From contig QPGO01000266.1 in NCBI GenBank assembly GCA_008632985.1, positions 1-64,000 on the forward strand: 64,000 nucleotides of DNA. Reading direction: 5' to 3'. This document shows positions 5,661 through 47,263 of the stretch, piece after piece (position 1 is the stretch's first letter; each line of letters opens with the position of its first letter). This DNA is from Psammoneis japonica (Eukaryota). The notes beneath the pieces are model-generated. The model was not told the origin of the DNA. It saw only the letters and a list, made by a program, of their open reading frames with translations, and searched no databases. The position numbers were made by a program, and so were the translations under genes.

Positions 5661-5719
5661 GCTTTCAACCAATCTGACTTTGAATCCATCACTGTTGACC
5701 CCTCAAGCAAACTGGGGAG

Positions 5720-22930: not shown

Positions 22931-23032
22931 CTTGGCGCCACATTGGGCACAAACACTTTGCCTGGATCGGTCAAAATCAAAGCAAAAGCATGAAACTTTC
23001 ACCACAAGTTTTAAAATTACACCAACAGAGAC

Positions 23033-24227
23033 ATGGTCTTGAGTGAAATTATCAACAATGCCCATGCATTTGAAATAGCTCTTGAAAACCGCGGACGCTT
23101 CATCCGTGGTAGCCACGTGCAAGCGACACCTCGCTCGACATCTACATTCGTTGACAAACGCGATGTACCACAACTGGTCAAAGTGTGTGAGACTGCTACT
23201 GCCAGAACTCCTGAGGAGAACAAGGAGTTACTAAATACTCTGGCAGAACATGCTGCATATTTGGCAGATGAGGTACCAACCCTTGCATCCGACGAGATAC
23301 ATCTCATCATCGACTCGGGTGCTTCTGTCACAATTTCAAACAATGAACATGACTTTATTGGTTACATACGACCTGTCCAAAACTTGGACTTAAAGGGCAT
23401 TGCATCTGGCCTAGCCATTGAGGGCGTTGGCACGGTGAGATACGGCTTTATGGATGACGATGGCAACAATTTTACTGTTGATATCAACAATGTACTGCAT
23501 GCACCCACCTGCCCGGTTCGTCTACTATGCCCTCAACAAGTGGCAGCTGCTAGTCCTAATGAGGACACAGACGGGTTCTTTATAAGGGGTAAGTCCATGA
23601 CAATGATCTATGGACAACATCGCAAAACCGTGCGACACCATCACGAGTCGAATCTACCGATTCTCACTACGGCTCCAGGCTTTGGTAATTTTCGAGCTTT
23701 CTGCTCTGACATTAATGCAGATGGTAAACTGCCACCTCGCACCAACATAAAGGCACATTCGGCTTCGTATCCGGCTTTTGCTGTCACAACAAGAAAGCAA
23801 AAGGCGGCAGCCAACACAAACAAACAACAGACTTCTGACAATCAGCAGAACAAAAAGCCAAACAAAAATGAAAAGAAACCAAGGCCTACTCAGCCTCAAC
23901 AGGACTTGCCAGTCCACGAGGGAGGTATAGAAGACAACCTACTTCCCATCCAACGCAACATGTTGAAATTACACCATCGTATGGGACACGTTGGTTTTGA
24001 ACAAATCAAAGAATGGGCCAAAATCGGCACCGTGCCGAAACGCTTTGCAAAGTGCGAAGCTCCAGTCTGCAAAGCATGCGCTTATGCAAAAGCCAAGCGC
24101 AAGGCAGCTCAACGTGGTCACCGTATTGATGAATGCCACGACAACGCTCCAGGTCAAGGAGCATCCGCGGATCAACTCGATGCGAGTCATCTGGGCCTAC
24201 TTCCTACTTCTCGTGGTAAACCAACTA
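23033..24227 (+). pseudogene. pol: Copia element 2 pol, 5' part (protease, pre-integrase HHCC zinc finger, start of integrase)
   Basis: LIIDSGASVTISN; HHRMGH...CKAC; SADQLD...RGKPTT; the frame resumes at 38564 once the insertion is removed. Confidence 0.9.
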
Positions 24228-24704
24228 CATCAGAGGCCCGAATTCATGAATCATTGTATGCTGGTACCAGCATGGGAATGTTGTATCCTAAATTTGTGTT
24301 TTACCACGAATCCGCAGATTTATGATAAATCGGCATTATTTATGGTTAATCACGCCGATTAACATTAATCAGCGTGATTTATAATAAATAAATGTCCATT
24401 TCCATCAATGAATGTCCGACAAAATCAACAAGTGTCCGTGGCAATAAATGAACAGTTCTTGTTTTTAATCTGTAATGTACAACGCAATAAAGTATGCTCA
24501 CAAACCAGTCACTTTACTGTCAACAACATTGATTGTTGCTGTCTGCTGGGCAACGATCGAATCCAATGTACAGATTTGTTTTAAATCTCCCATGTGTTTG
24601 CAAATAAGTGGAGTCACAGATCCCGTCTATTTGCTACGTTTCTGTTACTACAACTGATTTTCCATAAGTGCACATGAATCTCATTGCTACTTAGTTACTC
24701 TTCA

Positions 24705-26177
24705 CTAGACTGGAGTCAACTCCAGTTCGTAGATTTCCTCGCAGTTGAGCATCTGCTCTTCCTCGTCGTCCGAGTCTTCCTTGTTTTCCTCCGCCGCTTG
24801 TTTCTCTCGCTTGGCGTCAATGGCCCTGTAGAGTTCTTCAAAGCGCTCGAGTTGTTTGCTTGCAACGTCTTGCTTGATTTCCTTGACAAGTTCACAAAAG
24901 AACTTGTTCGCTTTCGGTGACCATCCCTTGTTCTTCCGCGGCGTCTTTCGCTTCTTCCTTGCCATACCGTCTTCTGCCGAATCCGTTGGCTTCGCGGCCG
25001 TGAAGTGCTTGAGTCTCCTGACGGACTTCCTCTTCCGGTTGGACAGCTCCTTCTGGTCTGTAATGTTCTCCACATTCTTTTTTAGCTCTTTCGTCACGTC
25101 TTGTAGTGCTTTCACACGCTCGCCCGTCTTTGCTTTGTTTCTGACCTGTTTGATCACCGCGTTGCGCTTCTTGGTGTATTCTTCTCTTGTCTTGATGAAC
25201 TTCTCTTTGAGCTCTTCGACATCAGTTTCTTCCTCCATCGTGTCTTGTGGGTCTTTCTCAAGGAGTGAGAACTTGCTCTTGTTTTCATCGTCCTTCTCCT
25301 CGAGCATGGTCATGTCCGGCAGGAATGTCTCGCATAAGTCGTTCCTGTCACCTGTGGGACACCCGTCATCTTCAATTGGTGCCTCGTACTCCGAAACCAG
25401 TGTGCTACCCTCGTCTCTGCTCTTGTAGTCGGCATGCCATGCGTCGTAGTTATTCTTGAGGCTCATGAGTGCATGTGCCTCGGCGCACGACGTGCCCATA
25501 CTCTTGCCCTTGGAGAGTGTCTCCTTCCAATGAGCGTCTCCAACAATGGGGCGCAAGATGTAGTCGCAGAACACCATGTGCAATGTTGGATTCTCCAAGC
25601 GGCGTTCGAATCTTTCGACGGACGGCAAGATGCAATTGTGTTCCTCGCAGTATGCACAAAGATCTGCACTCACATGTAAATCCAGTGCGACGACTGTGTT
25701 AGTTGCACTCTTTGCAATCAGGATTCCTTCCAGGCTGCACTCACTGTGGAACTTGTCCTGCTGGGCCTGGCATGCGTTGGATCTCTTGATGGACATCCAA
25801 TCCTGGCACATTTTCTTTTCCTTCATTGTCAGCCATAGATGCTTGAGGTAGGATTTCTGCGCCTCTTGTGGCAGTTGTGGTAGCATCCCGTCCATAAGGA
25901 GTTTGCTGCAATTCTGGGCGTAGTCTCTGTGCATGAGTCCTGATTCCTCCAAATCCTTTGGGTCAAAAATGAATATGATGTTCAGGAAAAGTGTCTCCTT
26001 GACATGGTCTCTCACCTTGGCTGTGTCCCGCATAACCTTGGCATCGTCTGCGATCCACTCACTGGTGTTCACCTCTGTTACGACCTGGGTTGTCATGTTG
26101 GATCTCGCCGCATTTGTTTTTTGTGTGGTGATTCCTGACTCTGTTGAGTCTTGTGGATGATGGCCGTTCCTTCCCAT
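24705..26177 (-). CDS. Transposon accessory protein of unknown function, charged coiled-coil C-terminus; probable 81-nt in-frame intron 25664-25744
   Basis: 490-aa open frame, divergent from the transposase; GTGAGT...ACTAAC...GCAG intron signals. Confidence 0.8.
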   Translation of the reverse strand: MGRNGHHPQDSTESGITTQKTNAARSNMTTQVVTEVNTSEWIADDAKVMRDTAKVRDHVKETLFLNIIFIFDPKDLEESGLMHRDYAQNCSKLLMDGMLPQLPQEAQKSYLKHLWLTMKEKKMCQDWMSIKRSNACQAQQDKFHSECSLEGILIAKSATNTVVALDLHVSADLCAYCEEHNCILPSVERFERRLENPTLHMVFCDYILRPIVGDAHWKETLSKGKSMGTSCAEAHALMSLKNNYDAWHADYKSRDEGSTLVSEYEAPIEDDGCPTGDRNDLCETFLPDMTMLEEKDDENKSKFSLLEKDPQDTMEEETDVEELKEKFIKTREEYTKKRNAVIKQVRNKAKTGERVKALQDVTKELKKNVENITDQKELSNRKRKSVRRLKHFTAAKPTDSAEDGMARKKRKTPRKNKGWSPKANKFFCELVKEIKQDVASKQLERFEELYRAIDAKREKQAAEENKEDSDDEEEQMLNCEEIYELELTPV

Positions 26178-26550
26178 TTGTTATGATCCTTCTCTGTCCT
26201 TTAGAATAACATAGAGGACTTGAATCGTTGGATGTGCTCAGGCTTTGATGTATGTTCTTTACAGTTCCCGAATTTTTTCTTATATTTCAAAAAAAGAACT
26301 CATGGTAATTCAAATCCAATGTCTTGTCGAAGGAATGGATATGATTATTACGCAGTCCTCCCTGTTTGGTTTTCGGCCAGCTCTCAACGGCTAGGGCTAT
26401 TCAGTGTTTGCCATAGTGGCTTTGAATTTAAATCAGTGGGAGCTTCCCCCCAATAAAATGACTGAAAATCAATCTGGCTAGTGCCAAATCAATATTCTGC
26501 AGTCCATTTGCGTCTGTGCTGTCCTTTTACAATCTTGTGCCTTATGCATC

Positions 26551-29500
26551 ATGGTTCGTTTGCACTGCCGCTACCAACGTCGGTTTGGTCCAATCAGCCA
26601 CAGTGCTTCCACCACACAGCAACTGTGCACGTTCTCCCAAGCCACAGCGTTGCTCCTGCAAGAGCAGCGCTCTCAAAAATCTGCGGCCTTGTCCGGTCAA
26701 GAATTTTCGAATCCTGATCCGTCTGATTCCTCTAATTTTGCCCCTCCTGATGTCCAGGAAGATGGAGGGTTCCACGACGACAACGCTTTCTCCCCCTCAG
26801 GCAATGATGATGGCACGACAAGCCCTCCTCCAGAGGACGATGAAGATTATGTGGAGGAAGGTGAAGAATCCGATCTTGACGGCAACGACGGAGGCTGGGA
26901 CGATAGCTCCCAACATGACATGTTTCCAGGTCCTCCTGTTGATTCTTGGAATTCCGACGACGAATCGGAAGATGGTCCGCCTCATGCAGGAGAGGGGCCA
27001 CCAGGTCCTCCAATTGAGAGCAGCAGTGCTGGTCCAAGTGACAACGACCCTCCTTTGAGTGGATCATCACCGACGTTTACTCTTGCCGAGGAAGCATCTT
27101 TGGAGCTGATAACTCTTTGTGACAGTTCTGGCATGACTCGCAAGTTTTACGGGAAGTTGCTTGCCCTGTTTCATCGGTTCCGCAAGAGGAAATTCAATTT
27201 TGAAAATGCACTTGGTCGAGACAAGTTGGTTGAGAACTTGAGTAAGAAGGTGTGTATGCCCAAGCCCGACACCCGCATCATTGGTGGCCGCGAAGTAACT
27301 CGTTTCTGCATGCTTGACATGTTGCGAGACCTACTCCGTCATTCCTTGTTTGATGACGAGCACAACCTCAACGTGAATAAATCTATGCAGGATCGCTTCA
27401 AGAAGTTCATCCTGGTTGAAGACACCAATCTTGGTGAGACAATGTCTAACAAATGGCATTCTGACACCTATGACAACCTTCCAGAAGACTTCGATCCAGA
27501 GAAGGACTTGCTTCTGCCCATTGCGTCTTATGCGGACCAGACGGGTACCGATGCATATCAACGCTACCCCCTGGAGCCCTGGCTGTTTTGCATCCTTCTC
27601 GCCAAGAGGCACGTTCGTGAGCGTGATTGTGCGTGGCATCATCTTGGCGTTATTCCGAGTCTTGACAAGGGCGGGACAGCTACCACTGTGGATGATAACG
27701 GCAACGTAAATGAAGATGAGGTTCAAGCAGCTGCAGGTGACTCTTCTTCGTCGTCCTCCAACATCCAAGCTTGCCACGACATGCCATCATTCCTGTTGGA
27801 AGATCTGAAGTCTCTGCAGGCGGAGCCTCCCCTGCTGCGTGTAAACATGGGCGGCATTCGCCGTCTTGTGCAAATCCTGATTGTCCAAGGCCCAATTTTG
27901 GGGGATCAGAAGTCTCAAGATTACATCTGCGGTCGCAAGGCCACCAATGGTGGCGGTGCCGGTCGAGTACACCGTTTAAGCATGTGCTCTGCGACACAAG
28001 CGTCTAATACATTTCTACCAACCAACGCGGACGGCCTTTCGTTTACACCAATCAACGTCAGTGTAGTGTCTCGTCTGAACGAGTTGGCACTTGGATACGG
28101 CGCATCCAGAGCGGTGCTTGAAAAGGACAGTGCCCTGGATGGGTACCTGAAGAGGCAGCAGAAGCTAGCAATTGCCCTGCTCTCACGTCCCCACATGATG
28201 CATCCGCTTCGCAACGCATTTGAGGGTGTCGATTTTGGAACTAACCCCTGGGGTGTGTTTGCAGCCATGACCGATGATCACCTCCATTCGTGGGAAGGTG
28301 GTGGAGGAGAGAACGTCGCTCAAGTGTCGTACTTTGGAATGACAAAGACGGAGAAAGAAAACTTTGAGAGTGAACTAGTTGCGGTTGTAGGATCGACCAG
28401 GTCGACTTCCCTTGCGTCCTATCCCAGAGGGCATTTAAATTCAGGGTTTAGCCGCATGACTCTCCAGACCCACGCGGAGAAGATGGGATGCCTTTTTTAC
28501 CTATGTGTTGGAATGCAATTTAGCAAGCCATGTGAGATCATGGAAACGGCACACGCCAGACAAAAGAACAAGTACCAAACGTTTCCTACGGCTTCTAAAC
28601 TTGCCTCGTTGCGGAAACCAAAGGCTACAGACAAGAAGGGAGGTGCGAAAGGTTCTTCCCCAGCTTCCCAAGATCAGGGTACACCTTCAGAAGGTCAGAG
28701 CGTGCGTCCCTCTGTTGGCTGCAAACAATCAGGTTCCAGCAGTAGTTTCGCTCGACACCCGAACAAGAGGACAAAGTCATCTCAGCAGGCGGCCCGACAA
28801 AGAGCAGCACATAATTCGGCATCGGAAGAACCAGACAAGAGTGTTTCTGATAAGGAGGACGACGATGGCGAGAAGAAAGAGAAAGACAAGAAACCTCTCC
28901 CTCCCTCCTTTTTTCCGTTACGGAAGGACACATTTTATGCCACGGATAGTGACACCAAAGATCCTTTTGATCGCAAACCAGAAACAATCCAGTACGTGAT
29001 CAAGCATCTAAAGCTCCATGGATTTGGTTTTTTGCTCGAAGAAGACTTTGATGATTTTCAGCTTGACCAGTTGTTTGTTGAATCATGGAAGATCCTCAAG
29101 AAAATCCAGGCGAAGGTTGAGGATTCGTATCCTTCCTCCCAAGACGTTGCCTCCGTCGACTGTCCTATTATTCGTGACCGATGTGACTGTTTGTTCCAAC
29201 GACAAAGCCGAAGGCCAAGGCTAACCAAGGTGGAGCAGTGCATTGGCACGCGCTTACGCAAGACTGTTGCAAAGAAAAGGGTGGATCTTTCATCCTTGCC
29301 AGTAGTGGGACAAGAAGACAACGAGCGTGAAGAAGACACACACAACCCTTGTCAGTTCTCTTACCCGATGGAGGGTTGCATTGTGAAACACCGTCGGAAG
29401 AAACCCACAATCAAGGGCAATGGATACACGGGTGCCATCTTATCTGACATGACGACGTGCTCCTCCTTCTTGGAGTACATTCTCTGCTACCACGCCTTCT

Positions 29501-30621
29501 GTCATTATTCGTATCTTTTGCCGAGAGAGATGCAGTTGGACTTGGTCACTCTCGACTTTGGNNNNNNNNNNNNNNNNNNNNNNNNNNNNNNNNNNNNNNN
29601 NNNNNNNNNNNNNNNNNNNNNNNNNNNNNNNNNNNNNNNNNNNNNNNNNNNNNNNNNNNNNNNNNNNNNNNNNNNNNNNNNNNNNNNNNNNNNNNNNNNN
29701 NNNNNNNNNNNNNNNNNNNNNNNNNNNNNNNNNNNNNNNNNNNNNNNNNNNNNNNNNNNNNNNNNNNNNNNNNNNNNNNNNNNNNNNTACCAGACTTGTG
29801 AACGGGTTTGTGAGTTCATGTTATACAATTCTTGCTTGGACATAATGTTGAAGCAGAAAGAGCAAGCAACTAGCGATGGTGAACCATCAGTATCGTCATC
29901 CGATGACAATGATGACGAGCCCACAGCCACCTTTACCAGGAAACAGCCCCACTTCATCTTCCTTCGAGACGACTTTGACAATGTATTGGCAATTGATCGT
30001 TTTGGAAAATCGTCCAAGACAACCAAGTCCACCGGCCATCCCTGTCGTGCCTTCCTTGAAGCCCTTCAGGAACTGGAGCCAGATCAGCAATGCTTTGACA
30101 TCTGGACGGAGGCGAAGCTGTCCAACGGAGAGCATTTACGTGCGTGCCCGCAATGCAAATCCAAAGAGGGACCATGGTTTGACTGGGCTGAAGTTGACTT
30201 TGCAATGGGCGATGGTTCTGCCCAACCATTCCCCTCCCGTGTGATTGGTTTTTACCGGGCAGAGGATGATGTTTTGAAGGCAATTATTCACTCTGTTCAT
30301 TACAAGCTGGCGACTGCCACTGAGTCGGACTTTGGGGACACTAGACTGTTCACTCACTACCGACAAGAATTCCAAGCCAACGGGAAACCCTCGCTACGTA
30401 CATGCCGGCTGGATGAGATCCAACGCGGCATTCTCTGCTTCATGTTCCAACGACACAAGGACCCAGTCCCACCAACCGTGCGTAATCCGGCCAGCAGAAG
30501 AGAGCACCGAGTTATGGTTGTCCGTCCTCGTTTGGACTGGGCAAAAACATTCGTGGAGTGGACCAGAGAGATGATGGATCGAGAGGAAAACGCGGAGGGT
30601 TCGGACAAGTTCTCTTTTTAG
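26551..30621 (+). CDS. Plavaka/CACTA-like DDE transposase (spans an assembly gap; true start uncertain)
   Basis: LLPIASYADQT, YPLEPWLF, WHHLGVIP, ILGDQKSQDYICG, DDHLHSWEGG and C-terminal PWFDWAEV motifs; lies within the TIRs. Confidence 0.8.
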   Translation: MVRLHCRYQRRFGPISHSASTTQQLCTFSQATALLLQEQRSQKSAALSGQEFSNPDPSDSSNFAPPDVQEDGGFHDDNAFSPSGNDDGTTSPPPEDDEDYVEEGEESDLDGNDGGWDDSSQHDMFPGPPVDSWNSDDESEDGPPHAGEGPPGPPIESSSAGPSDNDPPLSGSSPTFTLAEEASLELITLCDSSGMTRKFYGKLLALFHRFRKRKFNFENALGRDKLVENLSKKVCMPKPDTRIIGGREVTRFCMLDMLRDLLRHSLFDDEHNLNVNKSMQDRFKKFILVEDTNLGETMSNKWHSDTYDNLPEDFDPEKDLLLPIASYADQTGTDAYQRYPLEPWLFCILLAKRHVRERDCAWHHLGVIPSLDKGGTATTVDDNGNVNEDEVQAAAGDSSSSSSNIQACHDMPSFLLEDLKSLQAEPPLLRVNMGGIRRLVQILIVQGPILGDQKSQDYICGRKATNGGGAGRVHRLSMCSATQASNTFLPTNADGLSFTPINVSVVSRLNELALGYGASRAVLEKDSALDGYLKRQQKLAIALLSRPHMMHPLRNAFEGVDFGTNPWGVFAAMTDDHLHSWEGGGGENVAQVSYFGMTKTEKENFESELVAVVGSTRSTSLASYPRGHLNSGFSRMTLQTHAEKMGCLFYLCVGMQFSKPCEIMETAHARQKNKYQTFPTASKLASLRKPKATDKKGGAKGSSPASQDQGTPSEGQSVRPSVGCKQSGSSSSFARHPNKRTKSSQQAARQRAAHNSASEEPDKSVSDKEDDDGEKKEKDKKPLPPSFFPLRKDTFYATDSDTKDPFDRKPETIQYVIKHLKLHGFGFLLEEDFDDFQLDQLFVESWKILKKIQAKVEDSYPSSQDVASVDCPIIRDRCDCLFQRQSRRPRLTKVEQCIGTRLRKTVAKKRVDLSSLPVVGQEDNEREEDTHNPCQFSYPMEGCIVKHRRKKPTIKGNGYTGAILSDMTTCSSFLEYILCYHAFCHYSYLLPREMQLDLVTLDFXXXXXXXXXXXXXXXXXXXXXXXXXXXXXXXXXXXXXXXXXXXXXXXXXXXXXXXXXXXXXXXXXXXXXXXXXXXXYQTCERVCEFMLYNSCLDIMLKQKEQATSDGEPSVSSSDDNDDEPTATFTRKQPHFIFLRDDFDNVLAIDRFGKSSKTTKSTGHPCRAFLEALQELEPDQQCFDIWTEAKLSNGEHLRACPQCKSKEGPWFDWAEVDFAMGDGSAQPFPSRVIGFYRAEDDVLKAIIHSVHYKLATATESDFGDTRLFTHYRQEFQANGKPSLRTCRLDEIQRGILCFMFQRHKDPVPPTVRNPASRREHRVMVVRPRLDWAKTFVEWTREMMDREENAEGSDKFSF
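29562..29787. other. Assembly gap (226 N)
   Basis: Run of N. Confidence 1.
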
Positions 30622-30680
30622 ATAAATTAACATGTAAACACCTACAATGCAACTTACATAACAAGGAATACCGTGTCCGT

Positions 30681-31748
30681 TCAAACACTGAAATGGGCGT
30701 GGGCAACAGCAAGTGCATCTGTATATTCTTGAGTAGGCTCTGGTACATCGAACTCACACCTGTTCCTGAAATGGCCTAATTGAGACTCGATCTTCAAAGC
30801 CAATTCGAGGATGTCTTCATTTGCCTTCGCTTCACCATTCATGAAGGTGACCGCACTCCACATCTCTTTGTTAAATTGTGGAGATTCAAATTCCAGCTGA
30901 CTACAATGGACGAAACTCCTAACCATCTTCCGTTCATATTCCCTGCCTCTCTTGAAGGCCTCAATCAGCAAGATCATCGAGTTTTTCAATGCCCCCTGCT
31001 CATAGTTCAGAAAGCGAAAATCGCGTGGACCATCTGATGGAACGACTATGCCTTCAATGAGTGGCTTGACAACATTCTGGAGAGTACGAATTAGAATCTT
31101 AATAGCCTCGTGCTGTTGGTCCACCGTCTCACTGCCGGTTACCTCTTCCGTTTCTAACAAATTGCAACTCATAAAAAGAGGCGAATCATAGCTCAACGGC
31201 AGGAACAAGGCAAACGGTGTTTCTTCTTGTTGTGTACCAACAACACGAAGAGGTAGGCCTTGCGCTGCCACATCAAATTGGTCTCCAAGCAGTACCCTTT
31301 GGAGTGCAATTTCTGCATCGCTGAATTCCCTAAGAGCACGTATGTACGCATTGTCAGCGTAATGACCACGCACACCACCAATCAAACTGTCGACGAAAGC
31401 ATTCTTCATTTGTGTTGGGTTAGAGTTTGTGTTTGGGTCTTGCTCATGTTCTAGATGACGATGAGCCCTCATTGCCATTTCACGTGAATTTACCACCCGA
31501 TTGATAGAATGAAGGACGGCTTGTTTCTTCGCAATTGCAACCCTTTCCTCAGGATTGCGTGGTGGATCCGAGTGAACCCTGTCCTCGACAGAAGCCCTCA
31601 CATGCTGACCAAGATCCTCAGCGGCCCTAAGACGTAATTCCTGGTCTGACAAATTCAGATCAAGAAGCCGACATAACGACTCGGGCCAAACTATTTCCTC
31701 TTCCTCGTCCGACATGATAGTAATCTCCTCCACTTCCTGGAGAGTCAA
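30681..31748 (-). CDS. Transposon cargo, hypothetical helical protein (~345-355 aa)
   Basis: Long ORF with normal protein composition; convergent with the transposase. Confidence 0.7.
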   Translation of the reverse strand: MTLQEVEEITIMSDEEEEIVWPESLCRLLDLNLSDQELRLRAAEDLGQHVRASVEDRVHSDPPRNPEERVAIAKKQAVLHSINRVVNSREMAMRAHRHLEHEQDPNTNSNPTQMKNAFVDSLIGGVRGHYADNAYIRALREFSDAEIALQRVLLGDQFDVAAQGLPLRVVGTQQEETPFALFLPLSYDSPLFMSCNLLETEEVTGSETVDQQHEAIKILIRTLQNVVKPLIEGIVVPSDGPRDFRFLNYEQGALKNSMILLIEAFKRGREYERKMVRSFVHCSQLEFESPQFNKEMWSAVTFMNGEAKANEDILELALKIESQLGHFRNRCEFDVPEPTQEYTDALAVAHAHFSV

Positions 31749-31962
31749 GTGTCAGCTGTTGTGACACGTGTGAAAAGAGGAAGTTCTGTTCGTGCTTTTG
31801 TGTGCAAGGTGTTCGTCGGAAAAAGATGTGACGGTCGTGCGTCAGCATTCCCGTTGTCTGTCCATCCACTGACCAAGTCAACCTCAACGCACAACGTACC
31901 AACAGGCCAAGGTTCCAACTGATCCAACCGACCAACGGAAATGGCGGGAGTGCCACAACACA

Positions 31963-32682
31963 ATGGAGGCCTCCTGCGTTGGTGCCCTTCATGTCCTTCT
32001 TGGACAAGGACGTGTCCCTGTGTGGAAACGCATCTTTGAGCACCTAGATGAGAGGGACAGCCGTTTACTTGCAAGTGTTTTCCGAGTTGGAAGCCGATTC
32101 CTTGACGATGTAGCTGACATGGGTTGGCAAAGGATTTCGGAAAATCCAGTGTACAGCAACGACGCATTTGGAGGCAGTCCTAGGATGAAGGTGCAGCGAA
32201 GGGCCCGGGCAATAGGAGAAATTGATTATCTTCATTACCACGTCAATGGTTTTGAAGGTTTCAGGGAGGAATTGTACGAAGCAATCGACACAAATGAAAG
32301 ACTGTTCCATCAGTGCAACAGGTTCCAACATTTCCTGTCGATTCGCACAAGTGATTTTGAGATTCATTATGAACAAGGTGCACCCCATCATTCAAGCACG
32401 CATGTCACTTACTTTGAAGACTGGGTGCCTCACACTTTTATGTATTGTGAAGAAGGGGTGGATCACTACCTGTTGAATTTTTGGTTGCAGGACTTAAACA
32501 TCCGTATCCAGAGACCGAGAAGACGAAAACGACCAGACGGAAGTGAAGTTCTCCCAAGCGTTGCATTGGTTGCTTACGATTGCGATGATCTTCGTTTATG
32601 TTCACCACGTCGTGTCTGTGCCCTTCCTGGCATTAGCGTTGAGCATGATTTAATGAGACATGTCAACGGAACGATTGTGTGA
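31963..32682 (+). CDS. Transposon cargo, hypothetical protein with a possible N-terminal F-box-like motif
   Basis: 239-aa ORF; VPVWKRIFEHLDERD...LASV resembles the F-box pattern. Confidence 0.6.
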   Translation: MEASCVGALHVLLGQGRVPVWKRIFEHLDERDSRLLASVFRVGSRFLDDVADMGWQRISENPVYSNDAFGGSPRMKVQRRARAIGEIDYLHYHVNGFEGFREELYEAIDTNERLFHQCNRFQHFLSIRTSDFEIHYEQGAPHHSSTHVTYFEDWVPHTFMYCEEGVDHYLLNFWLQDLNIRIQRPRRRKRPDGSEVLPSVALVAYDCDDLRLCSPRRVCALPGISVEHDLMRHVNGTIV

Positions 32683-32945
32683 CTTGGCAATCATGATTAT
32701 CGACCCCTGAATTTGCAGCATCGCAATGATTCTTGCCCTCCGATCATAGGAGGCAATCTGTTTCTGGTAGAAAACCAGCTTGTAGGCATGCGCCTGTTCA
32801 TCAGCGACCGAGCATCGGACATGGTTGGGAGGTATTACTCTCGCTATCTTGCGTTGTTTTGCAATTGCTGCTTAGCGGACGTACCCCCCACCAATGCGCC
32901 GTCGGCACAGTGGGTCTATTGAGAACAATCCTCACAACCTTTAAA

Positions 32946-33723
32946 CTAGCGCTTTTTCAACAGTAAGAATTTGGAGGATGACGGCTCATTCAGCGTCTCA
33001 TAGAATTCCTTGGCTTGTTGCACTAACCACTGTGGAAGCGACTTGGTGATCAGCTCCATGGTCACTTTACCCGTTGTGTACCTGTCCACCTGGTCTTCGT
33101 CGTTGAGACCCCATACCTTCTGGCAGACGTCTTTTGGAATACCCTTGGAGTGAAAAGAGAGTGAAGATTCGACATCAGGATCAAGTTCCCATCTGTAGTC
33201 TAGCTCGATCTTCTCAAGGTTGCAAAGTAATCCCACAAAAGAGCACATTGTCCAAGGCAAAATAATCCTGGAGTCTTGCGGTAACCCTTCCGCAAGAGCC
33301 GTGAGGTTGTTGTCAAAGAAACCACTACCCAGGCGTTTGTCTTGCCAGTGGGCGGGAAACCAATGGCAATCCATGACCACCTCCCTGATGGCAGTTATGT
33401 CGACTAGCCGCCCTTTGCAATTCTGTGGTGAAAGTCCTTGAAGAAACATTGCACCGCAGATGACGATTGGGATCCCCGCTCTGCAAGGACACCGTGTAGA
33501 TGTTCTTCACACCTTCGGTTCCTTCGACAAAGAGAATTCGTCCATTGTCGCTCCTTTCTTGCGCGGACTTAAACAAGGAACAGCCTTTAGGCGAGAATGC
33601 TTTGGGAGCAGTCAGTTCATTGGCTGCCTCTGTTCTTGTCATAAGAAGATACAATTGGTTCTGTTCACTCGTTGACTTGTCTCTAGTGGTGGCTTCGATG
33701 TTAGCAATAGTCGGGTCGGCCAC
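32946..33723 (-). CDS. Transposon cargo, hypothetical; two overlapping frames (frameshift or intron near 33450)
   Basis: ORFs 33325-33723 and 32946-33449 have protein-like composition; may be 3' exons of the 1406-aa gene. Confidence 0.5.
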
Positions 33724-36700
33724 TACATGGTGTTGTTCGGCAGTGGCATCACCAACTTCGTTGGAATCGAGTGATGGATCGCTTCAATTGAAACCATCAA
33801 AAAACAAACGAAGCAAAGTGTCATTAGAAAGGACAGCAATGCTGCACATGTTTCGAAAGTAGACTCGGTCATGATGGAGATCGCGTCCCAATATCTTGTG
33901 CCGTATCGCTTGACGCTAGGAGCTGCATCGTCTCCGATTAGCATGAACAAATGTTGACCACGAGCGAAATGCTCTTGAATGATTCCTTCTACCCGATTAG
34001 GAGCCGCCCAATCGCATAGGACACATTCTCTACAGGAACCGCCATGATGCTGAATGCCATGTTCAACCACAAGGGCTTCTGAGCACACTGCACGATCCTC
34101 TCCATCTAAGTGCTCCAATTGCTTTGCTGCACCCAGATTGGACACAGGATAAACCAGGTTCCTCAAATCTTTGTGGGGATGAACAACAATTCCAGCACCA
34201 ATGAGCATCTGGACTATCATCATCAACCTAAACTCGCTGATGTCCGTTTTCTGTGGAGGGAACTCCTGCAGAGTTGCCCGGAACTGGCTCTCCAGCATGG
34301 CGTGGTGGAAGTCAGAAGTACCAGTGTGTTCGTCTATCCACTTCAACAATTTCAGAATTTCGTCTACCATTTGATCCATTACGTTTGACATCTGGAGATT
34401 ACCGACACGTGGTTCGTTGGTAGTGCAAGCATCGTCTTGTAGCAGATGATCAATGTCAGCATCCGCAGGTGACAATTCTTCCTCCATAAATGACAAACGC
34501 CCTTGGCACCTGCGTTTACCTCTTCTTCTAGTGTGGATGTCTCCGTCTGGTTTCCTCTTTCCCTCACCATTTTCCTCGGGGATCACACAGCATGTCTCGA
34601 TGAAATTGTAGCCACTGGGGTTAAGACGGTTGGGAGTCACGCCAATGTCACCTGCACCAGTGCCAAATAGCCTCTGGGATAGTTCGTAGTACACAAGTGC
34701 TGGGTCGGCACCGGGATCAGTCAATTCTTCCTCATACTCCATGCCAATGTGGAAGAAACGATGGAAGCCAGTCTGATACGAAGCCACAATGGCTAGCCTG
34801 ACAACCTTGCGAATTCCAATTGCTTCACGAACGAGAAACAGGATAGTGATGCCCATGGACAACCACAAATCACGAATGCAGGACGTTGGAAACTCCATCC
34901 TATCCATTACAATCGAACCGTCCTTGTCCAACTCCTTTTTTTCGTAGGGGCAGTAATCGTCCAAGAACATGTGTTCCGGATGTCGATGGTTCAAATCTTT
35001 GGGTGGCCTATGAGGACCCTTGTACTTGGAGATAAACTCGTCATGTGCTCGCTTTATGTGAGTAACGTGCTTGAGCATCCTGGTCCTCAAGGGCTTTAGC
35101 GTCAAGGATCGGTCGAAATGTTGTCCAGCCCTTTTACGGCTGTTGGCAATGAATTTGACAGAAACGACATTACCAAGCTTGTCCAGGATGAAAATACAAA
35201 GAGCACCAGTCTTGGTGTAACCATGACAAACACAGTTTTCTCCATCATAATGGATTTTGGTAAAATGAGGCATGGTCTTGACTTGAACGGCACCAAGCTC
35301 ATTCCTTGCTACTTTTGCACCAAGCCCATCATGAAGAGCCATCCCACACAGTTCGGTTTGAGCGTCGAGGCCGTACGGAGCCAGGTTACCGAAATACTCA
35401 ACCTCTAGCTCGTCGTGACACCTCTGCATGGCATCATAAATGTCAGCCAGCATAGACTTGATCTGGTTGCGAGTCGTTTCATCTTTCTCTTTTTCAAAGA
35501 CTCCAAAACCAAATCGACGTGCAGGGATTGTCTTGCCGTTATCGAGAGTTTCATTATCCCGACCACAGGCACCAAATTCTATCCTGTGGTTGTCAGCATC
35601 ATCGTCATCGTCACGGTCATTGTTTTTCTCACCGTGTTCCTTTACAAAACGAGCTATCATTCCAGCATCTATTTTGAGAGATCCGAAATGACGCTGCCAA
35701 ATACGTCCGGACAATCGCAGAATGGCAGCATCATCCTGGACACGTTGAGCCTTGGGGGGGACAATCACCAACTCACGGTCATGGTTCAGAGCAGAAGGAA
35801 GAAGGTCGGTCGTCTCAAAGGAATGGAGGTTGTGGTGGAGATCGTCAACTAAATGGCAATCAGCAGGGGAATGGTGAAGGTTTAACTCGCGATATGTTGA
35901 TTGCTCATTATCCTCATCGTCCTCAGACGCATTGCATGAAACACGGAGCCTGGGAGCGAACTTGGTTAAATCGGAAGGCGACGCAACGCTGCAACAATAA
36001 CCACGGGGAAAACGAGCATCAAGGGGAGCACATCTTGGGGAAAAAGTTGCAGCAATGGGCTTGTCAGGGATGCTAGGCTTTTCAGCAGGAGACGTTGCAA
36101 TAGAAGCTTCTCCTCCTCCCGTGGGTGGATCAGCAATGACAACATGGTCATCAGCAGCATCGGCTGCATCGGCGGCATCCGTAACCGAAACGCCCGAAAA
36201 TGACTGGCAGTCTTGTGCGTCGTCAACATCCTCGTTTGCTGGAGACAGCTGGGATGAGAGTGCACTGAAGGAAGCATTGGGCGCAGCTGAAGTGGAATCA
36301 GATGCGGCGTTGGTGTGCTGAGAAGCGGCGTTGTTTGTAGCCTTCTTGTTAGAAGAAGGGGGCGGGGGGGCTAGAGAACCAGCGGAGACACGACCAGAGG
36401 CCACACTTTGTTTCCTTCTCCTTTTGGTTGATGACACACACTTCTCCTTCGCAGCGCGGGAAAGGTACGGGTGCATCAGATCACGAACACGAGAGCGGAC
36501 AATTACAAGGTTCCTGAACTTGTAACGATTCGTGTTACCACAGGATTGCTTGAACGTAGAGTGGAGCTCTCGTTCCACTAACTCTTGGTGCCGTCGTGCC
36601 ATACCTTTCGCGGTGGCTTGGGTCGACACATAATCCTTGACACCATCCAACCGCTCAGTAAGGAGAATCTTGGCAACCTTCCCATTCTTCAGTTTTGCGT

Positions 36701-37943
36701 CCGTGTTGATCAGAGTCAACACGTTGTTGCACATTTGTAGAAATTGCTTCCTCTTTTGGCAACCAGAAAATATCACAGTTGACCAGTGACGATAGTTCCC
36801 ATGCTCCTTCTCCACGTGAGGGAGAAAGCAACAGTCAACGATGGCCGTGGCAATGCTAAGACACTGTGCCGTGAAGTCCAATTTGGATTTAAAGCTCGAA
36901 AGATGAAGGAAGCAGTCCTCATTGCCAAGCTTTTCCCGTTGGATCATCTTGTATAAATCACTCATTATTGCATGGAGGTTCTTGCCGAATTTGGTGAGAT
37001 TGCCAAAGGACTCAGCAAGCTTCCGGTGCTCAAGAACATGGCTCCCATCTTTGCGACGGTGGCACAACCAACCACGGCTTTTCACATAATGAAAGCCATC
37101 ATCACACCCAAGAGATTGACCAACTACATCGCAAACAGCCAACACTTCCTCGAAAAAATGGGAGGACCGATTCTGGCGGTTGTAACAGATGAAGGGAAGA
37201 GCAATGAGATCAGGAGAGGGAGTCCACTCGTGAGATTCAAGAAACTTCTGACGACGGCGCTGCGTCTCAACAAGTTTTGTGAAACGCTTCTTGGAAATAC
37301 AGGCACCGCCAGTGCCCCCAGTGAAAACTTGGGCTTCATCGTCAAGCGCGAGGGGGGGTTTAGTGCGTAGCCCGACGGTGGTCACCGTGCTTTTATCGTC
37401 AGAGTCTGAGTCAGAAAAGTCGTCGCCATCGTTTTCGTCAGGAAACGAAAGATCACTAGCACACCCTGGGTTGTCGGGGGCGGCAATGTGGCCGGAATTG
37501 AGTTTTCTAGCAGGGACGTCAAACGATGTGTCGTCTGGAGGGCCACCGGAAACCTTGTCAGTACATGGAGTGGCCACCACCGTGCCGCTGCCCACGGAAT
37601 TGTCGGAATCGTCATCTTTTGGAGGAGAAGAACCCTTCAAATCATCATCGGGATGTGTTGCAGAGGCTTCTTGAGATGCCGTGGGGGGCAAGACACCGTC
37701 AGAAGGCCGTGCTGCCAATTCTGGAGGGGAAACAAGTTCCTGAAGAGATCCGTCGTGGTCGGGTGACGTGACATAAAACGCCGTTACGCCGGTTCCGGAA
37801 ATAGAATCTTCATCTGATGAGTCGGAGAGTGAGGAAAACACTCGCTTTCGCTTGGTTGTTGCTTTGAAGCGAGGCATGCGAGCGGCAGGAACAGCGTGCG
37901 GAGGGAAAAAGCGCCATGGGCAGTCAGAGCACCACAATCCCAC
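33723..37943 (-). CDS. Large cargo protein; candidate TET/JBP-like dioxygenase motif plus aGPT-Pplase/HhH-like C-terminal region
   Basis: 1406-aa uninterrupted ORF; HYDGEN at 35235-35252; ISEFRLMMIVQML...LGAAKQL...ECVLCD near 34010-34250. The confidence refers to coding status; the product call is tentative. Confidence 0.8.
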   Translation of the reverse strand: MGLWCSDCPWRFFPPHAVPAARMPRFKATTKRKRVFSSLSDSSDEDSISGTGVTAFYVTSPDHDGSLQELVSPPELAARPSDGVLPPTASQEASATHPDDDLKGSSPPKDDDSDNSVGSGTVVATPCTDKVSGGPPDDTSFDVPARKLNSGHIAAPDNPGCASDLSFPDENDGDDFSDSDSDDKSTVTTVGLRTKPPLALDDEAQVFTGGTGGACISKKRFTKLVETQRRRQKFLESHEWTPSPDLIALPFICYNRQNRSSHFFEEVLAVCDVVGQSLGCDDGFHYVKSRGWLCHRRKDGSHVLEHRKLAESFGNLTKFGKNLHAIMSDLYKMIQREKLGNEDCFLHLSSFKSKLDFTAQCLSIATAIVDCCFLPHVEKEHGNYRHWSTVIFSGCQKRKQFLQMCNNVLTLINTDAKLKNGKVAKILLTERLDGVKDYVSTQATAKGMARRHQELVERELHSTFKQSCGNTNRYKFRNLVIVRSRVRDLMHPYLSRAAKEKCVSSTKRRRKQSVASGRVSAGSLAPPPPSSNKKATNNAASQHTNAASDSTSAAPNASFSALSSQLSPANEDVDDAQDCQSFSGVSVTDAADAADAADDHVVIADPPTGGGEASIATSPAEKPSIPDKPIAATFSPRCAPLDARFPRGYCCSVASPSDLTKFAPRLRVSCNASEDDEDNEQSTYRELNLHHSPADCHLVDDLHHNLHSFETTDLLPSALNHDRELVIVPPKAQRVQDDAAILRLSGRIWQRHFGSLKIDAGMIARFVKEHGEKNNDRDDDDDADNHRIEFGACGRDNETLDNGKTIPARRFGFGVFEKEKDETTRNQIKSMLADIYDAMQRCHDELEVEYFGNLAPYGLDAQTELCGMALHDGLGAKVARNELGAVQVKTMPHFTKIHYDGENCVCHGYTKTGALCIFILDKLGNVVSVKFIANSRKRAGQHFDRSLTLKPLRTRMLKHVTHIKRAHDEFISKYKGPHRPPKDLNHRHPEHMFLDDYCPYEKKELDKDGSIVMDRMEFPTSCIRDLWLSMGITILFLVREAIGIRKVVRLAIVASYQTGFHRFFHIGMEYEEELTDPGADPALVYYELSQRLFGTGAGDIGVTPNRLNPSGYNFIETCCVIPEENGEGKRKPDGDIHTRRRGKRRCQGRLSFMEEELSPADADIDHLLQDDACTTNEPRVGNLQMSNVMDQMVDEILKLLKWIDEHTGTSDFHHAMLESQFRATLQEFPPQKTDISEFRLMMIVQMLIGAGIVVHPHKDLRNLVYPVSNLGAAKQLEHLDGEDRAVCSEALVVEHGIQHHGGSCRECVLCDWAAPNRVEGIIQEHFARGQHLFMLIGDDAAPSVKRYGTRYWDAISIMTESTFETCAALLSFLMTLCFVCFLMVSIEAIHHSIPTKLVMPLPNNTM

Positions 37944-38563
37944 GCAGATCCCATGGGGTCAAGATCCCCATGAGAAAACCGATGAGCTCGGTTTTTCCCA
38001 AAAACACAGGGAACTTGAGTTCGTAGGAGGGGAAGTAGGATGGACAAAGCCTGCAACCGGATTCCATGCGATTGTGTTGCAAAATGAATTGTTGTGGGAT
38101 GAAGGATGATGAATCACTGAGGCATGAATCCCAGGATCCAACGGACAACTCTCTCTGCTGCCCCCAGAGCAGACACAGCTGAAATTTCGTAAAATGATTG
38201 ACATCCACCATGAGGACGGGAATACAGTGTTTTTATCGAAAATACGTTAAAGACTCTGAATGCGAATGTTGTCAGTTGGAAGGCAACAACATTGTCTGGA
38301 TGTGAGGAAAGTCATGCCATGTGTGATAAATTTATTGGCACACAAGTAAATAACTGCACATAAGTCAAAAATGTCTCCAAGCAACACACACGTGTAATGC
38401 CAACAAGCATGGTGCAAATAAATAAAAACAGTGCATTCCCAACAAGTGCATTGAAAATAAATCTGTCTGGTGCAATTTCAACAAGCACGCGCGAAAACGC
38501 GCCATGACACATTGGGGTCACAAGACATGTGACTACTGCCCATTTCTACGGGTCTCTGATGCA

Positions 38564-41500
38564 CTCGCAGGTGCAGACATTGTGCTCTGTGGATTGATCA
38601 CTTCTCTAGATTTATCCATCCTTGTGTGCAAGAGTCTGCTGGAGGAAAAGAGACCTTGACTGGCAAAACCAAGCTCGAGAGATTCGCAGCAAAACACAAT
38701 ATAAAAATCGAGCACATTCATGCCGATAACGGCATGTTCGCCGCCGCAGAGTTCATGCAACACTGCGCTGAAAACAAACAACGAAACTCCTTTTGTGGAG
38801 TAGGAGCACACTGGCAAAACGGCATCTCGGAACGCCACATAGGCGTCATTGCCTCAATGGCGCGAACATGCCTGTCACACGCTCAGTCCCTCTGGTCTGA
38901 TGTAGCAACCACGGAATTATGGCCATTTGCCATCAGACAAGCTGTCAATTTCCATAATGTGTGCATCCGAAAAGGAAAAGAGAAAAACCCCTGGGAGCCA
39001 TTCACCGACGAGAAAGTGCCATTTCAAATGGACGATTTTCGCGTGTGGGGGTGTCCTGTTTACATCGCGGACAAAAGTGTCCAAGACGGGACTCACATCG
39101 GAAGATGGGCCGAACGGTCACGGCAAGGAGTGTACGTGGGACATTCGCTGGAACATGCCAGTAATGTCTATTTGGCATGGGACCCCATAACCAAACACGT
39201 CTCGCCACAATTTCAAGTCACATTCGACGAAAACTTTACAACCGTAGCGCCTGGAAAGACATCAAGCGATGATCTTGAGGCAGCTCTTGAGAAATTATTT
39301 AATGACCATGCAAACACTTGGACTCACCATGATGAATATTTCGATCATAATCGATATTATTTTGAAAAGAATATTTGGAGTAAGGACGACTTGCTCCGAG
39401 AACACGGTATCGACCCTCAAGCATACAAACATGCGCAAAAGACCAATCACAAATCACGAGGGAGAAAAAGAGACCGTGCTGGACAAGAAAAGCCAGACGA
39501 TGACGATACACCATCTGAGATTCTGCCAGCTGTTGATGTCTCGGCCGACACACCGACACATGCGGCAGCTGCACTAGCAGACACGACGATACTAGCAGAA
39601 TTGGCACACGCTGAAGCCTCCGAGGCTGTGCCACCTGTAGCGGCAGGTTCTTTATCGGAGAGAGCAGAGGGGACCCACTCATTGTCAAACCGACCGCTGT
39701 CGGTTAACAATGCGACACCGTTGATTGTAGACAATACAGTCACCCAGGGCCCAACTGTGGCAACTCTAGAGGATGCTACAACTTCTTTACCAACGAAAGA
39801 AGCCCTCCAACATTTAAACGATGAAGCAGACTATGCTCGTCATCAATTTCATGAATACAAACGCCGAAAAGGTTTAGATGACGACGCGACTTGTACAACA
39901 GCACAGAGCAATACGAAAAACAGTAACTTACCTGACGCGAACGCGTACATCACAATACCTCTATACCATAAAGAAGTTGCAGCTGAATTATACGAAGAGC
40001 TCGCACATCTGATGGCACTTATGGGTTCAGTAGACAATGACATACTTCTCGACGAAAATATATGGAACGAATCCAGTCCACTCGCTTTCGAAGCAGCGGC
40101 ACTAGGTAACGTCGATACCCTGACCCAGGGCCAGATGAAAAGAGTGCCAGACCGCGCCGAATTTGAAAAAGCCCAAGTTCCAGAAATACAAGGGCTAGTA
40201 GATATGGACGTATGGGAATACATACCACGTTCTGAAGTACCAAAAGACCACCGGTTGTTAAATGCAATCTGGTCATACAAAAGAAAAAGGAAACCAAGTG
40301 GTGAGCTTTCAAAATATAAAGCTAGAATATGCGTCGACGGTTCCAAACAACAACATGGAATAGACTATTGGGACACATTCGCCCCAGTCGTCGCATGGAG
40401 TACGGTACGACTGATATTGTGTCTAGCGGCAATCACCGGTCTGAAAAGCAGACAAGTGGATTATGTGCAAGCATTTCCACAAGCAGAACTGGAAGAACCA
40501 GTATATATGAGACTCCCAGAAGGGTGGGAAGTGAAAGACGAAAATGGAAACATCATACCAGACATGGTATGCAAACTGAAAAAGAACTTATACGGCACGA
40601 AAACTGCTGCACGAAACTGGTTCCAGAAACTATCAAAGGGATTGGAACGACGCGGTTTCAAGAAATCAAAAATAGACCCATGTCTATTCATCAGAAATGA
40701 CTGTATCATCTGCTCACACACAGATGATTGTTTAGCATTCGCTCCGGCGAACGATGTTATCACTACACTCATACAAGAACTCAAGCAAGACGAGTTTCAA
40801 CTTACCGACGAAGGCGATGTATCCGCTTTCCTCGGCGTAGATATTACCAATACCGCAGACGGCGAGATCCATATGACCCAGACAGGTCTTATTGATTCTA
40901 TATTGAAAGACCTCGGTCTGAGGTCCCACAACAATGAACCATTACAGAACAGGCCACAAACAAAGGCTGCTCCGGCAGCACAAATGCTGCATCCTGACAC
41001 GAACGGTCAGGAGCGTCAAGAACCGTGGAACTACCGGTCTGTCATCGGAAAGATGAGCTTTCTGGCACAAATGACTCGACCAGATATTGCAATGGCAGTA
41101 CAGTACATATGTGCGCTAGATTTTCTAATTGCCCAAAGGCATTGCACGAACGAGCAGTTAAGTACATCGGACGTTATCTGTTGGCAACTTCAACAGACGG
41201 TATTAAGCTCCGGCCGAAAGGGAAATTCTCCCTGGATGGATATGTTGATAGCGACTTCGCGGGAATGTGGCACAGAAATTTTGCCCATCTCCACGATACG
41301 AATCGCACCTGTCACGATCAGGATATATTATCACATTCGCAGGCTGTCCAATCTATTGGAAGAGCAAATTACAAACCGAGATAGCTCTCTCCTCAACCGA
41401 GGCTGAACTTATTGCACTATCACAGTGCCTAAGAGAGCTACTTCCAATGAGAACTATACTAGAAGAACTGTCCAAAACCATGGATTTTGAACTGGCAGAT

Positions 41501-46659: not shown

Positions 46660-46802
46660 CTCAGTTGATGGTCTGAGCCTACGAGCTAAAGACTAGATGG
46701 CATGGACCAGCCTACTGTTGTTTGGTGATTGGGGTTTTGTGGAGTTGAGTCATTGCTACAATTGGTAAGTTATTGGCTCAGAGCTCCGGTGACAGTAAGA
46801 AC

Positions 46803-47263
46803 TGATGCATTTCACACCTGCTCATGGAAGAATTTACAAAGGCACATTAGTTAATGTTTTCATTTTCCGTGTTTTTACCTTCTGTGGTGTGTATACACAA
46901 TGCACTGTGCTCAAAGAACGAGTATAAACGAAAGTAGAATCAAGCATGAAAAGTGAAAATTATGAAATTAAATTTTACTCTGTGATTTTTGGTTTCTCCG
47001 AACGAGTTCTCAATGGCCTAAAGCTTCTGTACTGCTTCTACAGACAAAAGGCCTTTCGGAGGATATATTCATGACAACAGATTGTCAGGATACGATTGCC
47101 ATTGACACGTAAGATGTCAACATCGTCAATCGATCGTATTTGCAATTTTCAACATCCGATCAACTCTGTGTGATCGTTCTGTCCTTTGTACGTATCCAAG
47201 ACTGTGGTGCGATTGACATATAAATAATATATCTGAACATGCATATAACAGTCGCATGCTGCA
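46803..47263 (-). repeat. Gypsy LTR copy
   Basis: Direct repeat of 14712-15178. Confidence 0.88.

Follow-up and report, generated by a model that had tools for sequence, protein, structure and literature searches.

A probable complete PlavakaB-type DNA transposon of 14.3 kb in a Ty1/copia integrase core of Psammoneis japonica, with two conserved accessory genes

Introduction

Does the 14.3-kb block that interrupts a Ty1/copia pol gene on Psammoneis japonica contig QPGO01000266.1 (NCBI GenBank assembly GCA_008632985.1) represent one complete mobile element, and if so, to which lineage does it belong and what are the genes carried beside its transposase? We analysed positions 1 to 64,000 of this contig, hereafter the window, in which the block occupies 24228-38561. 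The initial annotation, made from the sequence alone, had described it as a large multi-gene transposon of the Plavaka type, related to CACTA elements, and homology to relatives together with shared ends now supports this description. In our reading, 24228-38561 is very probably one complete PlavakaB-type cut-and-paste DNA transposon that was inserted in the integrase core of the Ty1/copia gene.

Plavaka elements were reportedly first named by Iyer et al. in 2014. In maize, the CACTA element En/Spm encodes the transposase TnpD and the accessory protein TnpA. According to the accessible text of a recent classification, Plavaka is split into PlavakaA, with TGT..ACA termini and a 2-bp target-site duplication (TSD), and PlavakaB, with 5'-CATCA..TGATG-3' termini and a TSD of 2 or 3 bp (Kojima 2025, PMC12730594). 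Both are placed there in a clade with EnSpm, Mirage, Chapaev and Transib, mostly with CA..TG termini and TSDs of 2-5 bp, and the fungal PlavakaB consensus sequences of the supplement start with CATCTGG, CATCGGG and CATCAGG (PMC12730594). As far as the available passages go, Plavaka elements are also described in red algae, green algae, streptophyte algae and moss (Spirogyra paper, PMC13519894; Auxenochlorella preprint). The red-algal elements presented in the accessible part of the Bostrychia moritziana preprint are 17-19 kb long and have three accessory genes, of which PAG1 is without a domain, PAG2 combines a DNA methylase with a SET domain and PAG3 gives weak HHpred matches to ParB and to a 2-oxoglutarate (2OG) oxygenase (10.1101/2025.02.11.637652).

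Results

Ends of the element

24228-38561: transposon, whole unit, 14,334 bases, a multiple of three
24228-24240, plus strand: left terminal inverted repeat (TIR), CATCAGAGGCCCG, as read from the window; the family-wide motif is CATCRGAGRCCYG
38549-38561, minus strand: right TIR, CATCAGAGACCCG (read inward), as read from the window
24241-24704: left subterminal non-coding region, rich in A+T; an imperfect palindrome of 27 nt lies at 24336-24391
37878-38548: right subterminal non-coding region, with CAACAAG repeats at 38400-38490

At the left junction TA is followed by CATCAGAGGCCCG (24226-24240), and at the right junction CGGGTCTCTGATG is followed by CA (38549-38563). The two arms are identical at 12 of 13 positions. 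When the window was searched for the pattern CATCAGAGRCCCG with at most one mismatch, exactly two matches were found in 64 kb, inverted relative to each other, where 0.11 would be expected; two or more matches did not occur in any of 100 shuffles. The exact ends with a 13-bp TIR that had been annotated are thus borne out, the arms at 24228-24240 (plus) and 38549-38561 (minus) being the sole matches. The element begins with CATCAGAG at 24228 and ends with CTCTGATG at 38561, which corresponds to the signature CATCA..TGATG. It had been noted correctly that CATCA ends are distinct from CACTA, and they agree with the terminal signature in the accessible text on PlavakaB (PMC12730594); judged by its ends, the window element fits this group.

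Relatives were sought in metagenome contigs, which were scanned with an alignment of the transposase; 108 of 146 candidate stretches were confirmed and 80 loci (433 kb) were kept. The window and these relatives have a common layout, with a gene called orfA on the minus strand, the transposase on the plus strand and a long third gene on the minus strand. The motif CATCRGAGRCCYG occurs as 17 exact matches in 14 of the 80 loci, against 0.10 expected from length alone. All 17 lie outside the gene block and in the proper orientation: 11 on the plus strand ahead of orfA, at 380-690 nt from its end, and 6 beyond the third gene on the minus strand. In the window the terminus lies 480 nt from orfA, compared with about 380-690 nt in the relatives. 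Other copies therefore share the ends, the point on which the initial annotation had made its claim depend, in relatives from elsewhere and with the right placement and orientation.

The elements of the relatives begin with CATCGGAG. Three sets of near-identical copies (loci L046/L047; L020/L022; L012/L056/L048/L057) diverge exactly at the C of CATC. L046 and L047 are 99.6% identical across 14.5 kb and differ outside, the break falling directly before CATCGGAGACCTGAA on the left and at its inverted copy on the right, and the variant CATCGGAACCCCGG forms the left ends of L012, L056, L048 and L057, each with a different flank. Because the similarity between the relatives' copies stops exactly at this C, the ends in the window, at the C of CATC on both sides (24228 and 38561), are placed to the base. 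Complete relatives measure 10.2 kb (L039, 40-10275) and 14.5 kb (L046, 862-15354; L047, 2431-16916), and the window element 14.3 kb. The comparison also shows that the CATCRGAG terminus is kept between elements with transposases only about 30-39% identical, and the TIR mismatch of the window falls at the position where relatives have A or G. A match to CATCAGAG near the right end of L046 and L047 (14376 and 15938) was tried as a terminus and rejected, as it has no left partner and is a chance match once the true ends are known.

In the right subterminal region CAACAAG is present in three copies at a spacing of about 39 nt (38400-38490), with one further copy in the left subterminal region. The pattern is weak and Tandem Repeats Finder made no call on it in the right region; it may represent a putative binding-site array.

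Insertion site in the copia gene

23015-24227, plus strand: host Ty1/copia pol gene, left part (Pol_BBD, gag_pre-integrs, start of the integrase core)
38562-41406, plus strand: host Ty1/copia pol gene, right part (remaining integrase core, SH3_retrovirus, RVT_2)
24226-24227: left flanking dinucleotide TA, putative TSD copy
38562-38563: right flanking dinucleotide CA, one base off the left TA

The left host frame (23015-24322) matches the Pfam families Pol_BBD (E 1.5e-6) and gag_pre-integrs (E 6.7e-5, under the curated cut-off), and the right host frame (38560-41403) matches SH3_retrovirus (E 1.4e-8) and RVT_2 (E 7.5e-42). From 38566 onwards the right flank corresponds to positions 25-100 of the 102 positions of the integrase core profile rve (E 0.0019, 18.8 bits), a score below the Pfam cut-off. 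On the left, gag_pre-integrs stops 45 residues ahead of the junction. Since rve resumes 5 residues past the junction, it is the integrase core of the copia pol gene that the insertion splits. The host retains long open frames of 436 and 948 codons, and no pair of long terminal repeats was found for it in a self-comparison of the window.

The initial annotation had stated that the interrupted copia gene rejoins in frame, and by coordinate arithmetic this holds if the element plus 2 bases is removed. Codon starts leave a remainder of 2 on the left and of 1 on the right when divided by three, and the element length is divisible by three; the frames therefore join only when 2 (or 5, 8 and so on) additional bases are taken out. 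This fits a 2-bp duplication, and a 3-bp duplication would break the frame. The TA duplication that had been proposed is present on the left side only: the right flank is CA, so that the flanks agree at one of two bases and do not form an exact duplication. Among 16 distinct exact-motif ends of related elements, TA adjoins the terminus at 7, against a background of 4.4% of the dinucleotides of the loci (binomial 2.7e-6). The flank pairs of the complete elements are TA/TA (L047), GA/TA (L046), AG/AA (L039) and TA/CA (window), where metagenome contigs may join the flanks of different copies. These data are best read as a 2-bp duplication that favours TA. The difference between TA and CA in the window would be explained by a single transition after insertion.

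Contigs of a sequencing run of one sample (run X1) were compared with the window. Transitions prevail among the differences between related contigs of this run. In one contig, of depth 39.5 and with 68 letters on the shorter side, 24215 is connected to 38566 by 4 other letters, and therefore copia relatives without the 14.3-kb insert exist.

Transposase and assembly gap

26551-30621, plus strand: Plavaka-type DDE transposase, by homology via relatives
29562-29787: assembly gap of 226 N inside the transposase gene

The open frame of the transposase (26482-30618) comprises 1379 codons with the first Met at codon 24 and is broken only by the run of N. None of the internal open reading frames (ORFs) of the element matched a relevant Pfam family at E 0.01, and only chance-level rows appeared at E 10. 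Together with the CATCA termini, the lack of a match to Transposase_21 or another Pfam transposase in these ORFs places the element outside EnSpm/CACTA proper. The assignment to Plavaka, for which a profile search against Plavaka and Transposase_21 had been proposed as a check, was instead reached through relatives. A phmmer search with the 1026 residues ahead of the gap (P0002) against 1.84 billion representatives gave 778 matches at E<=1e-3, 387 at E<=1e-10 and 94 at E<=1e-30, the best relatives being 38-39% identical and 1200-1370 residues long. The Pfam scan covered 41 of the longer proteins among the 150 matches listed; 31 of them matched Plavaka (PF18759; E 4e-14 to 4e-4), 24 above the gathering score, and 10 did not. 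The chain runs from the window protein to P0014 (E 8.9e-85) and from P0014 to PF18759 (E 3.9e-14), so that homology to this family is established through transitivity only. A cluster look-up of 10 relatives returned only 'hypothetical protein'. A language-model atlas pointed to Plavaka clusters (0.93, 0.92, 0.91), which counts as weak evidence because the recognition value (1871) lies below the mark set for the tool.

In an alignment with 14 relatives, the invariant acidic columns D352/D357 (YADQTGTD), D475/D480 (GDQKSQD) and E605 (DDHLHSWE) are all present in the window protein, as are Cys483, His497 and Cys502; the acidic residues are candidates for the catalytic ones. These results show that a full-length family transposase is encoded, and transitive homology supports its probable membership of the Plavaka lineage, which is part of the CACTA/EnSpm-Mirage-Chapaev-Transib-related clade.

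The N gap is confirmed at 29562-29787, and a mis-join at this place had been named as the observation that would overturn the element. A profile of 1238 positions, made solely from the 14 relatives, aligns at positions 37-890 with residues 55-1029 of the window protein and at positions 963-1232 with residues 1103-1377. The 72 missing positions (891-962) compare with about 75 codons of N, and the frame is identical on both sides. The transposase is thus colinear and in a single frame over the gap, which argues against a mis-join. It is very unlikely that the gap joins halves of two copies of the same family and that the 14.3 kb are not one physical element. Such a chimera could be imagined given the 226 N inside the element and the multi-copy state of the family in run X1, where the summed contig depth within the element is 40-250 and single contigs have depths of about 31 or 62. 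It is contradicted by the colinear profile, by the two flanks, which are parts of a single copia pol gene and restore its frame when joined, and by size and gene order, which equal those of the complete relatives.

Accessory gene orfA

24705-26177, minus strand: orfA (P0003), conserved accessory gene, divergent from the transposase

The open frame of orfA (24708-26180) has 491 codons with the first Met at codon 2. It was detected by tblastn in 35 of the 80 loci and with an orfA profile in 48, including every one of the 46 loci in which more than 1.5 kb precedes the transposase match. In related loci that carry it, orfA always lies upstream of the transposase on the opposite strand. Since it accompanies the transposase wherever a related locus could show it, we infer that orfA may act as an element-encoded cofactor required for transposition or its control, by analogy with TnpA for TnpD in maize En/Spm.

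An AlphaFold2 model of the orfA core (residues 165-491; alignment of 33 sequences) reached a mean predicted local distance difference test (pLDDT) of 84 and a predicted template modelling score (pTM) of 0.82. Its N-terminal domain is helical and contains the invariant C, E, F, W, E, A, W and E columns. A small beta unit and three long helices come next, and after them a basic linker, which is disordered, and two helices at the C-terminus. Foldseek searches with the model gave nothing at E<=0.001 in the PDB or in BFVD, and VIA-align against 48,161 chains gave no match (best Z 2.9). A PDB sequence-profile search found nothing below E 1, and Pfam scans of 11 members nothing consistent. Complex prediction for the orfA core with transposase residues 60-728 returned no verdict (score 0.00).

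Several run X1 contigs break off at 25624-25662 within orfA (loose ends in 3-5 contigs). This is the border between the variable N-terminal part and the conserved core, and the frame is broken there in many relatives (for instance L003, L045 and L004). The border may mark an intron, or else a point of recombination.

Accessory gene orfG and the third-gene position

33723-37877, minus strand: orfG (P0001), second conserved accessory gene, convergent with the transposase

The open frame of orfG (33726-37958) has 1411 codons with the first Met at codon 28. By tblastn it was found in 12 of the 80 loci, best in L045 (25% identity over 981 aa, E 1e-61), and its homologs include the third genes of L045, L037, L047, L049 and L029 (BLAST E 1e-9 to 1e-63). 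Among 19 loci with the C-terminus of the transposase and more than 1.5 kb downstream, 11 have the orfG type. Six of the other eight (L003, L009, L014, L020, L022, L039) carry a different long minus-strand frame at the place of the third gene; the remaining two are L056 and L058.

A profile of the five third genes covers orfG over positions 75-1248 of 1532. Its last positions, about 280, form a C-terminal module of about 290 residues that is lacking in the window and in L045 and is present in these relatives:

L047, 9338-10207: C-terminal module of the third gene
L049, 6954-7823: C-terminal module of the third gene
L029, 3334-4203: C-terminal module of the third gene
L037, 5550-6419: C-terminal module of the third gene
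L067, 2768-3637: C-terminal module of the third gene
L038, 6459-7328: C-terminal module of the third gene
L031, 6384-7253: C-terminal module of the third gene

The module has an invariant FFPGHxDK (His-x-Asp), a distal YH and, 13 residues later, an RDL with its Arg. We take this spacing of His-x-Asp, His and Arg to resemble that of 2OG-Fe(II) oxygenases, a likeness unsupported by any search: the one member scanned (L047) had no Pfam match and a module profile matched no PDB sequence. An early idea placed a candidate TET/JBP-like oxygenase core at H903-x-D905 of orfG. Neither Tet_JBP nor another 2OG-oxygenase family was matched in Pfam by the window ORFs or by nine third-gene homologs, and these nine homologs matched no other Pfam family. 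Word-based homolog searches with orfG residues 600-1411, and with an orfG profile against longer proteins, gave nothing, the language-model atlas held no usable match for orfG, and PDB sequence profiles gave nothing below E 0.3. An AlphaFold2 model of residues 760-1375 (6 sequences) was too poor for a fold search (pLDDT 41).

Other relatives vary the position further. In L045 a Ulp1 protease domain (Peptidase_C48, E 1e-8) lies at 7042-7656 on the minus strand, directly downstream of the orfG homolog on the same strand, and is followed by a 464-codon frame (5751-7145) without a Pfam match; L056 has both, and in the window no Ulp1 (C48) domain was found. In L020 (3753-7202), L022 (3481-6930), L039 (5792-8905) and L040 (5695-6996) the third gene encodes a different protein of 1040-1150 residues with 200 highly conserved C-terminal residues and no BLAST similarity to orfG. 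This subgroup shares orfA, the transposase and the CATCGGAG termini with the others. A reading of the third ORF of L020 and L039 as OTU-like, from a GDGxCGYYS motif, was dropped, as Pfam gave no support. orfG is probably a second accessory protein, and the variation of its C-terminal module among relatives suggests a chromatin- or silencing-related role.

Segment between the convergent genes

30619-33725: lineage-specific segment of 3.1 kb that separates the 3' ends of the convergent transposase and orfG genes
30684-31751, minus strand: open frame of 356 codons
31873-32679, plus strand: open frame of 269 codons
32946-33506, minus strand: open frame of 186 codons
33325-33783, minus strand: open frame of 152 codons

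The ends of the transposase and of the third gene are 3108 nt apart in the window, about 30-260 nt in the ten relatives listed and about 2 kb in L045. The four frames of the segment have no match in the 80 loci (tblastn) and none in Pfam, and orfC (P0154), which lies here, has no word-based homolog. Of the five or six further ORFs annotated inside the unit, the two at 24708-26180 and 33726-37958 (both minus strand) are conserved in related elements, and the other four are without a detectable relative. Likewise, the description of the element as cargo-carrying needs to be narrowed: orfA and orfG are conserved accessory genes of the family, and only 30619-33725 looks like lineage-specific cargo.

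We infer that the element acquired this cargo at the point where the two convergent genes end. It is unlikely that the segment arose later through a rearrangement or through the nesting of an unrelated mobile element, even though the gene ends around the segment are so much farther apart than the 30-260 nt of relatives, its four frames have no relative in the 80 loci and run X1 contains, at equal depth, a second version of 32011-32895 in which 482 nt are swapped for 52 letters. No terminal inverted or long direct repeats were found to bound the segment, and the Pfam scan revealed no transposase, integrase or reverse-transcriptase domain within it, so that no mobile-element domain accompanies the supposed insertion. 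Moreover, the closest relative, L045, holds about 2 kb of extra coding sequence, including the Ulp1 domain, at the same place, and for this reason gene gain at this site is recurrent.

In a second run of the same sample (run X2; 30 million letters, library type guessed) coverage of the element was confined to 30391-32961, besides part of the copia gene. The depth was very uneven (4 to 286). One contig of 1046 nt equals window 31916-32961 exactly; others are 4-8% different and skip 30532-30657. This coverage could reflect transcription of the middle segment or a repeat.

Remainder of the window

The window is repeat-rich. Its self-comparison revealed a satellite-like tandem array at 48504-49544, in units of about 178 nt that are 71-82% identical to one another, and dispersed repeats, 78-94% identical, outside the element at 14707-15178, 46798-47263 and 50205-50577, at 12869-13708 and 17934-18776, and at 5571-5966, 7916-8311 and 510-753. 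Seventeen other long open frames of the window were scanned and had no Pfam match.

Discussion

Shared termini, a full-length transposase and an interrupted host gene all point to a single complete element at 24228-38561. Several observations weigh against this reading. About 75 transposase codons are concealed by the run of N, and the window transposase has no direct Pfam match even at E 10. In the HRxC motif that follows the second Asp, the window has Ser at residue 500, where each of the 14 aligned relatives has Cys. The flanks TA and CA are an imperfect pair, and identical flanks are seen in only one of three complete relatives, or one of four pairs with the window included. The insert-free contig of run X1 is not a clean empty site, with 16 flanking bases replaced by 4. 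The sharing of ends was seen in metagenome relatives from elsewhere. Finally, the roles of orfA and orfG are hypotheses.

Some of these points bear on whether the copy can still move. Because the long frames are intact and the termini match at 12 of 13 positions, the data suggest that the copy is young, possibly still autonomous, and the relatively young age given in the initial annotation is probably right. It is doubtful, yet by no means negligible as a possibility, that the copy is instead a dead or non-autonomous fossil with an inactive transposase, which would move only with the help of other copies, if at all. The Ser at the otherwise constant Cys and the codons unseen in the gap would agree with such a fossil, one TIR mismatch and one flank mismatch speak for some time since insertion, and run X1 contigs that are 2-6% off the window cover parts of the element, so that several diverged copies exist. 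A decayed copy is harder to reconcile with three stop-free frames of 491, 1379 and 1411 codons, with the retention of all family-invariant acidic residues and with a TIR mismatch at a site where relatives themselves carry A or G.

For the young, complete element that we favour, the following course may be proposed on the model of its family. The transposase would bind the CATCRGAG termini and cut the element out, and reinsertion, for which TA would be the preferred site, would duplicate 2 bp. A point change following insertion would then account for the T/C difference of the flanks. Potentially, orfA acts as a cofactor for transposition or its control and orfG as a second accessory protein, and the 3.1 kb between the convergent genes would be lineage-specific cargo.

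The element resembles maize En/Spm in its large size, in a DDE transposase from the same wider clade, in encoding a second protein and in short TIRs beginning with CA. Unlike En/Spm, it has CATCA rather than CACTA termini and a duplication that is probably 2 bp, not 3 bp; its genes lie on opposite strands and are not spliced from one transcript, and its subterminal repeats are weak. With PlavakaB of Agaricomycotina fungi, as presented in the accessible text, it shares CATCA..TGATG termini, a short target duplication (2-3 bp), a transposase that reaches Pfam Plavaka (in the window via relatives) and a size of several kb with the ability to carry an extra gene (PMC12730594). It differs from fungal PlavakaB in a transposase too divergent for a direct Pfam match, in two other conserved genes (orfA and orfG) that match no Pfam family and in its closest relatives, which are aquatic metagenome contigs and not fungi; unlike the TET/JBP-carrying fungal elements, it has no TET/JBP gene by Pfam. 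Like the giant Plavaka elements of red algae, as far as the available part of the preprint describes them, it combines a Plavaka transposase with several accessory genes, some without a recognisable domain, within 14-19 kb. It has two conserved accessory genes, unlike the three found there, and the domains of PAG2 (N6-adenine DNA methylase, PF01555; SET, PF00856) were absent from the scanned frames of at least 100 codons in 24228-38561 (8 pieces). Genes like orfA or orfG are not described in the available passages of the Plavaka literature; PAG1 or PAG3, compared by description only, may be the same genes.

One may go further and speculate, tentatively and with more doubt than conviction, that these elements form a large unnamed Plavaka-like clade of aquatic microbial eukaryotes in which the transposase is always paired with orfA as an obligatory subunit or regulator and the orfG core serves as a swappable platform that counters host silencing. 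In the same speculative picture, and equally doubtful, the platform would carry the His-x-Asp...His...Arg module, Ulp1 or neither (as in the window), or would be replaced by a different protein.

The kind of element is already known, and this is a fairly ordinary mobile element with an undescribed set of accessory genes; knowledge of cut-and-paste transposons is not overturned. What is new is a terminal motif kept across a large, mostly aquatic clade, the strict pairing of transposase and orfA, and the modular third gene. For a Plavaka-type element that belongs to neither fungi nor red algae, ends exact to the nucleotide, size and gene content are now available. As CATCRGAG is conserved, such elements can easily be found and masked. 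The confident model of orfA, without a match in the structure libraries searched, makes this protein a concrete candidate for a new transposition cofactor. In addition, the changing third gene adds to reports of Plavaka elements gathering chromatin-related accessory genes, such as TET/JBP in fungi and PAG1-3 in red algae.

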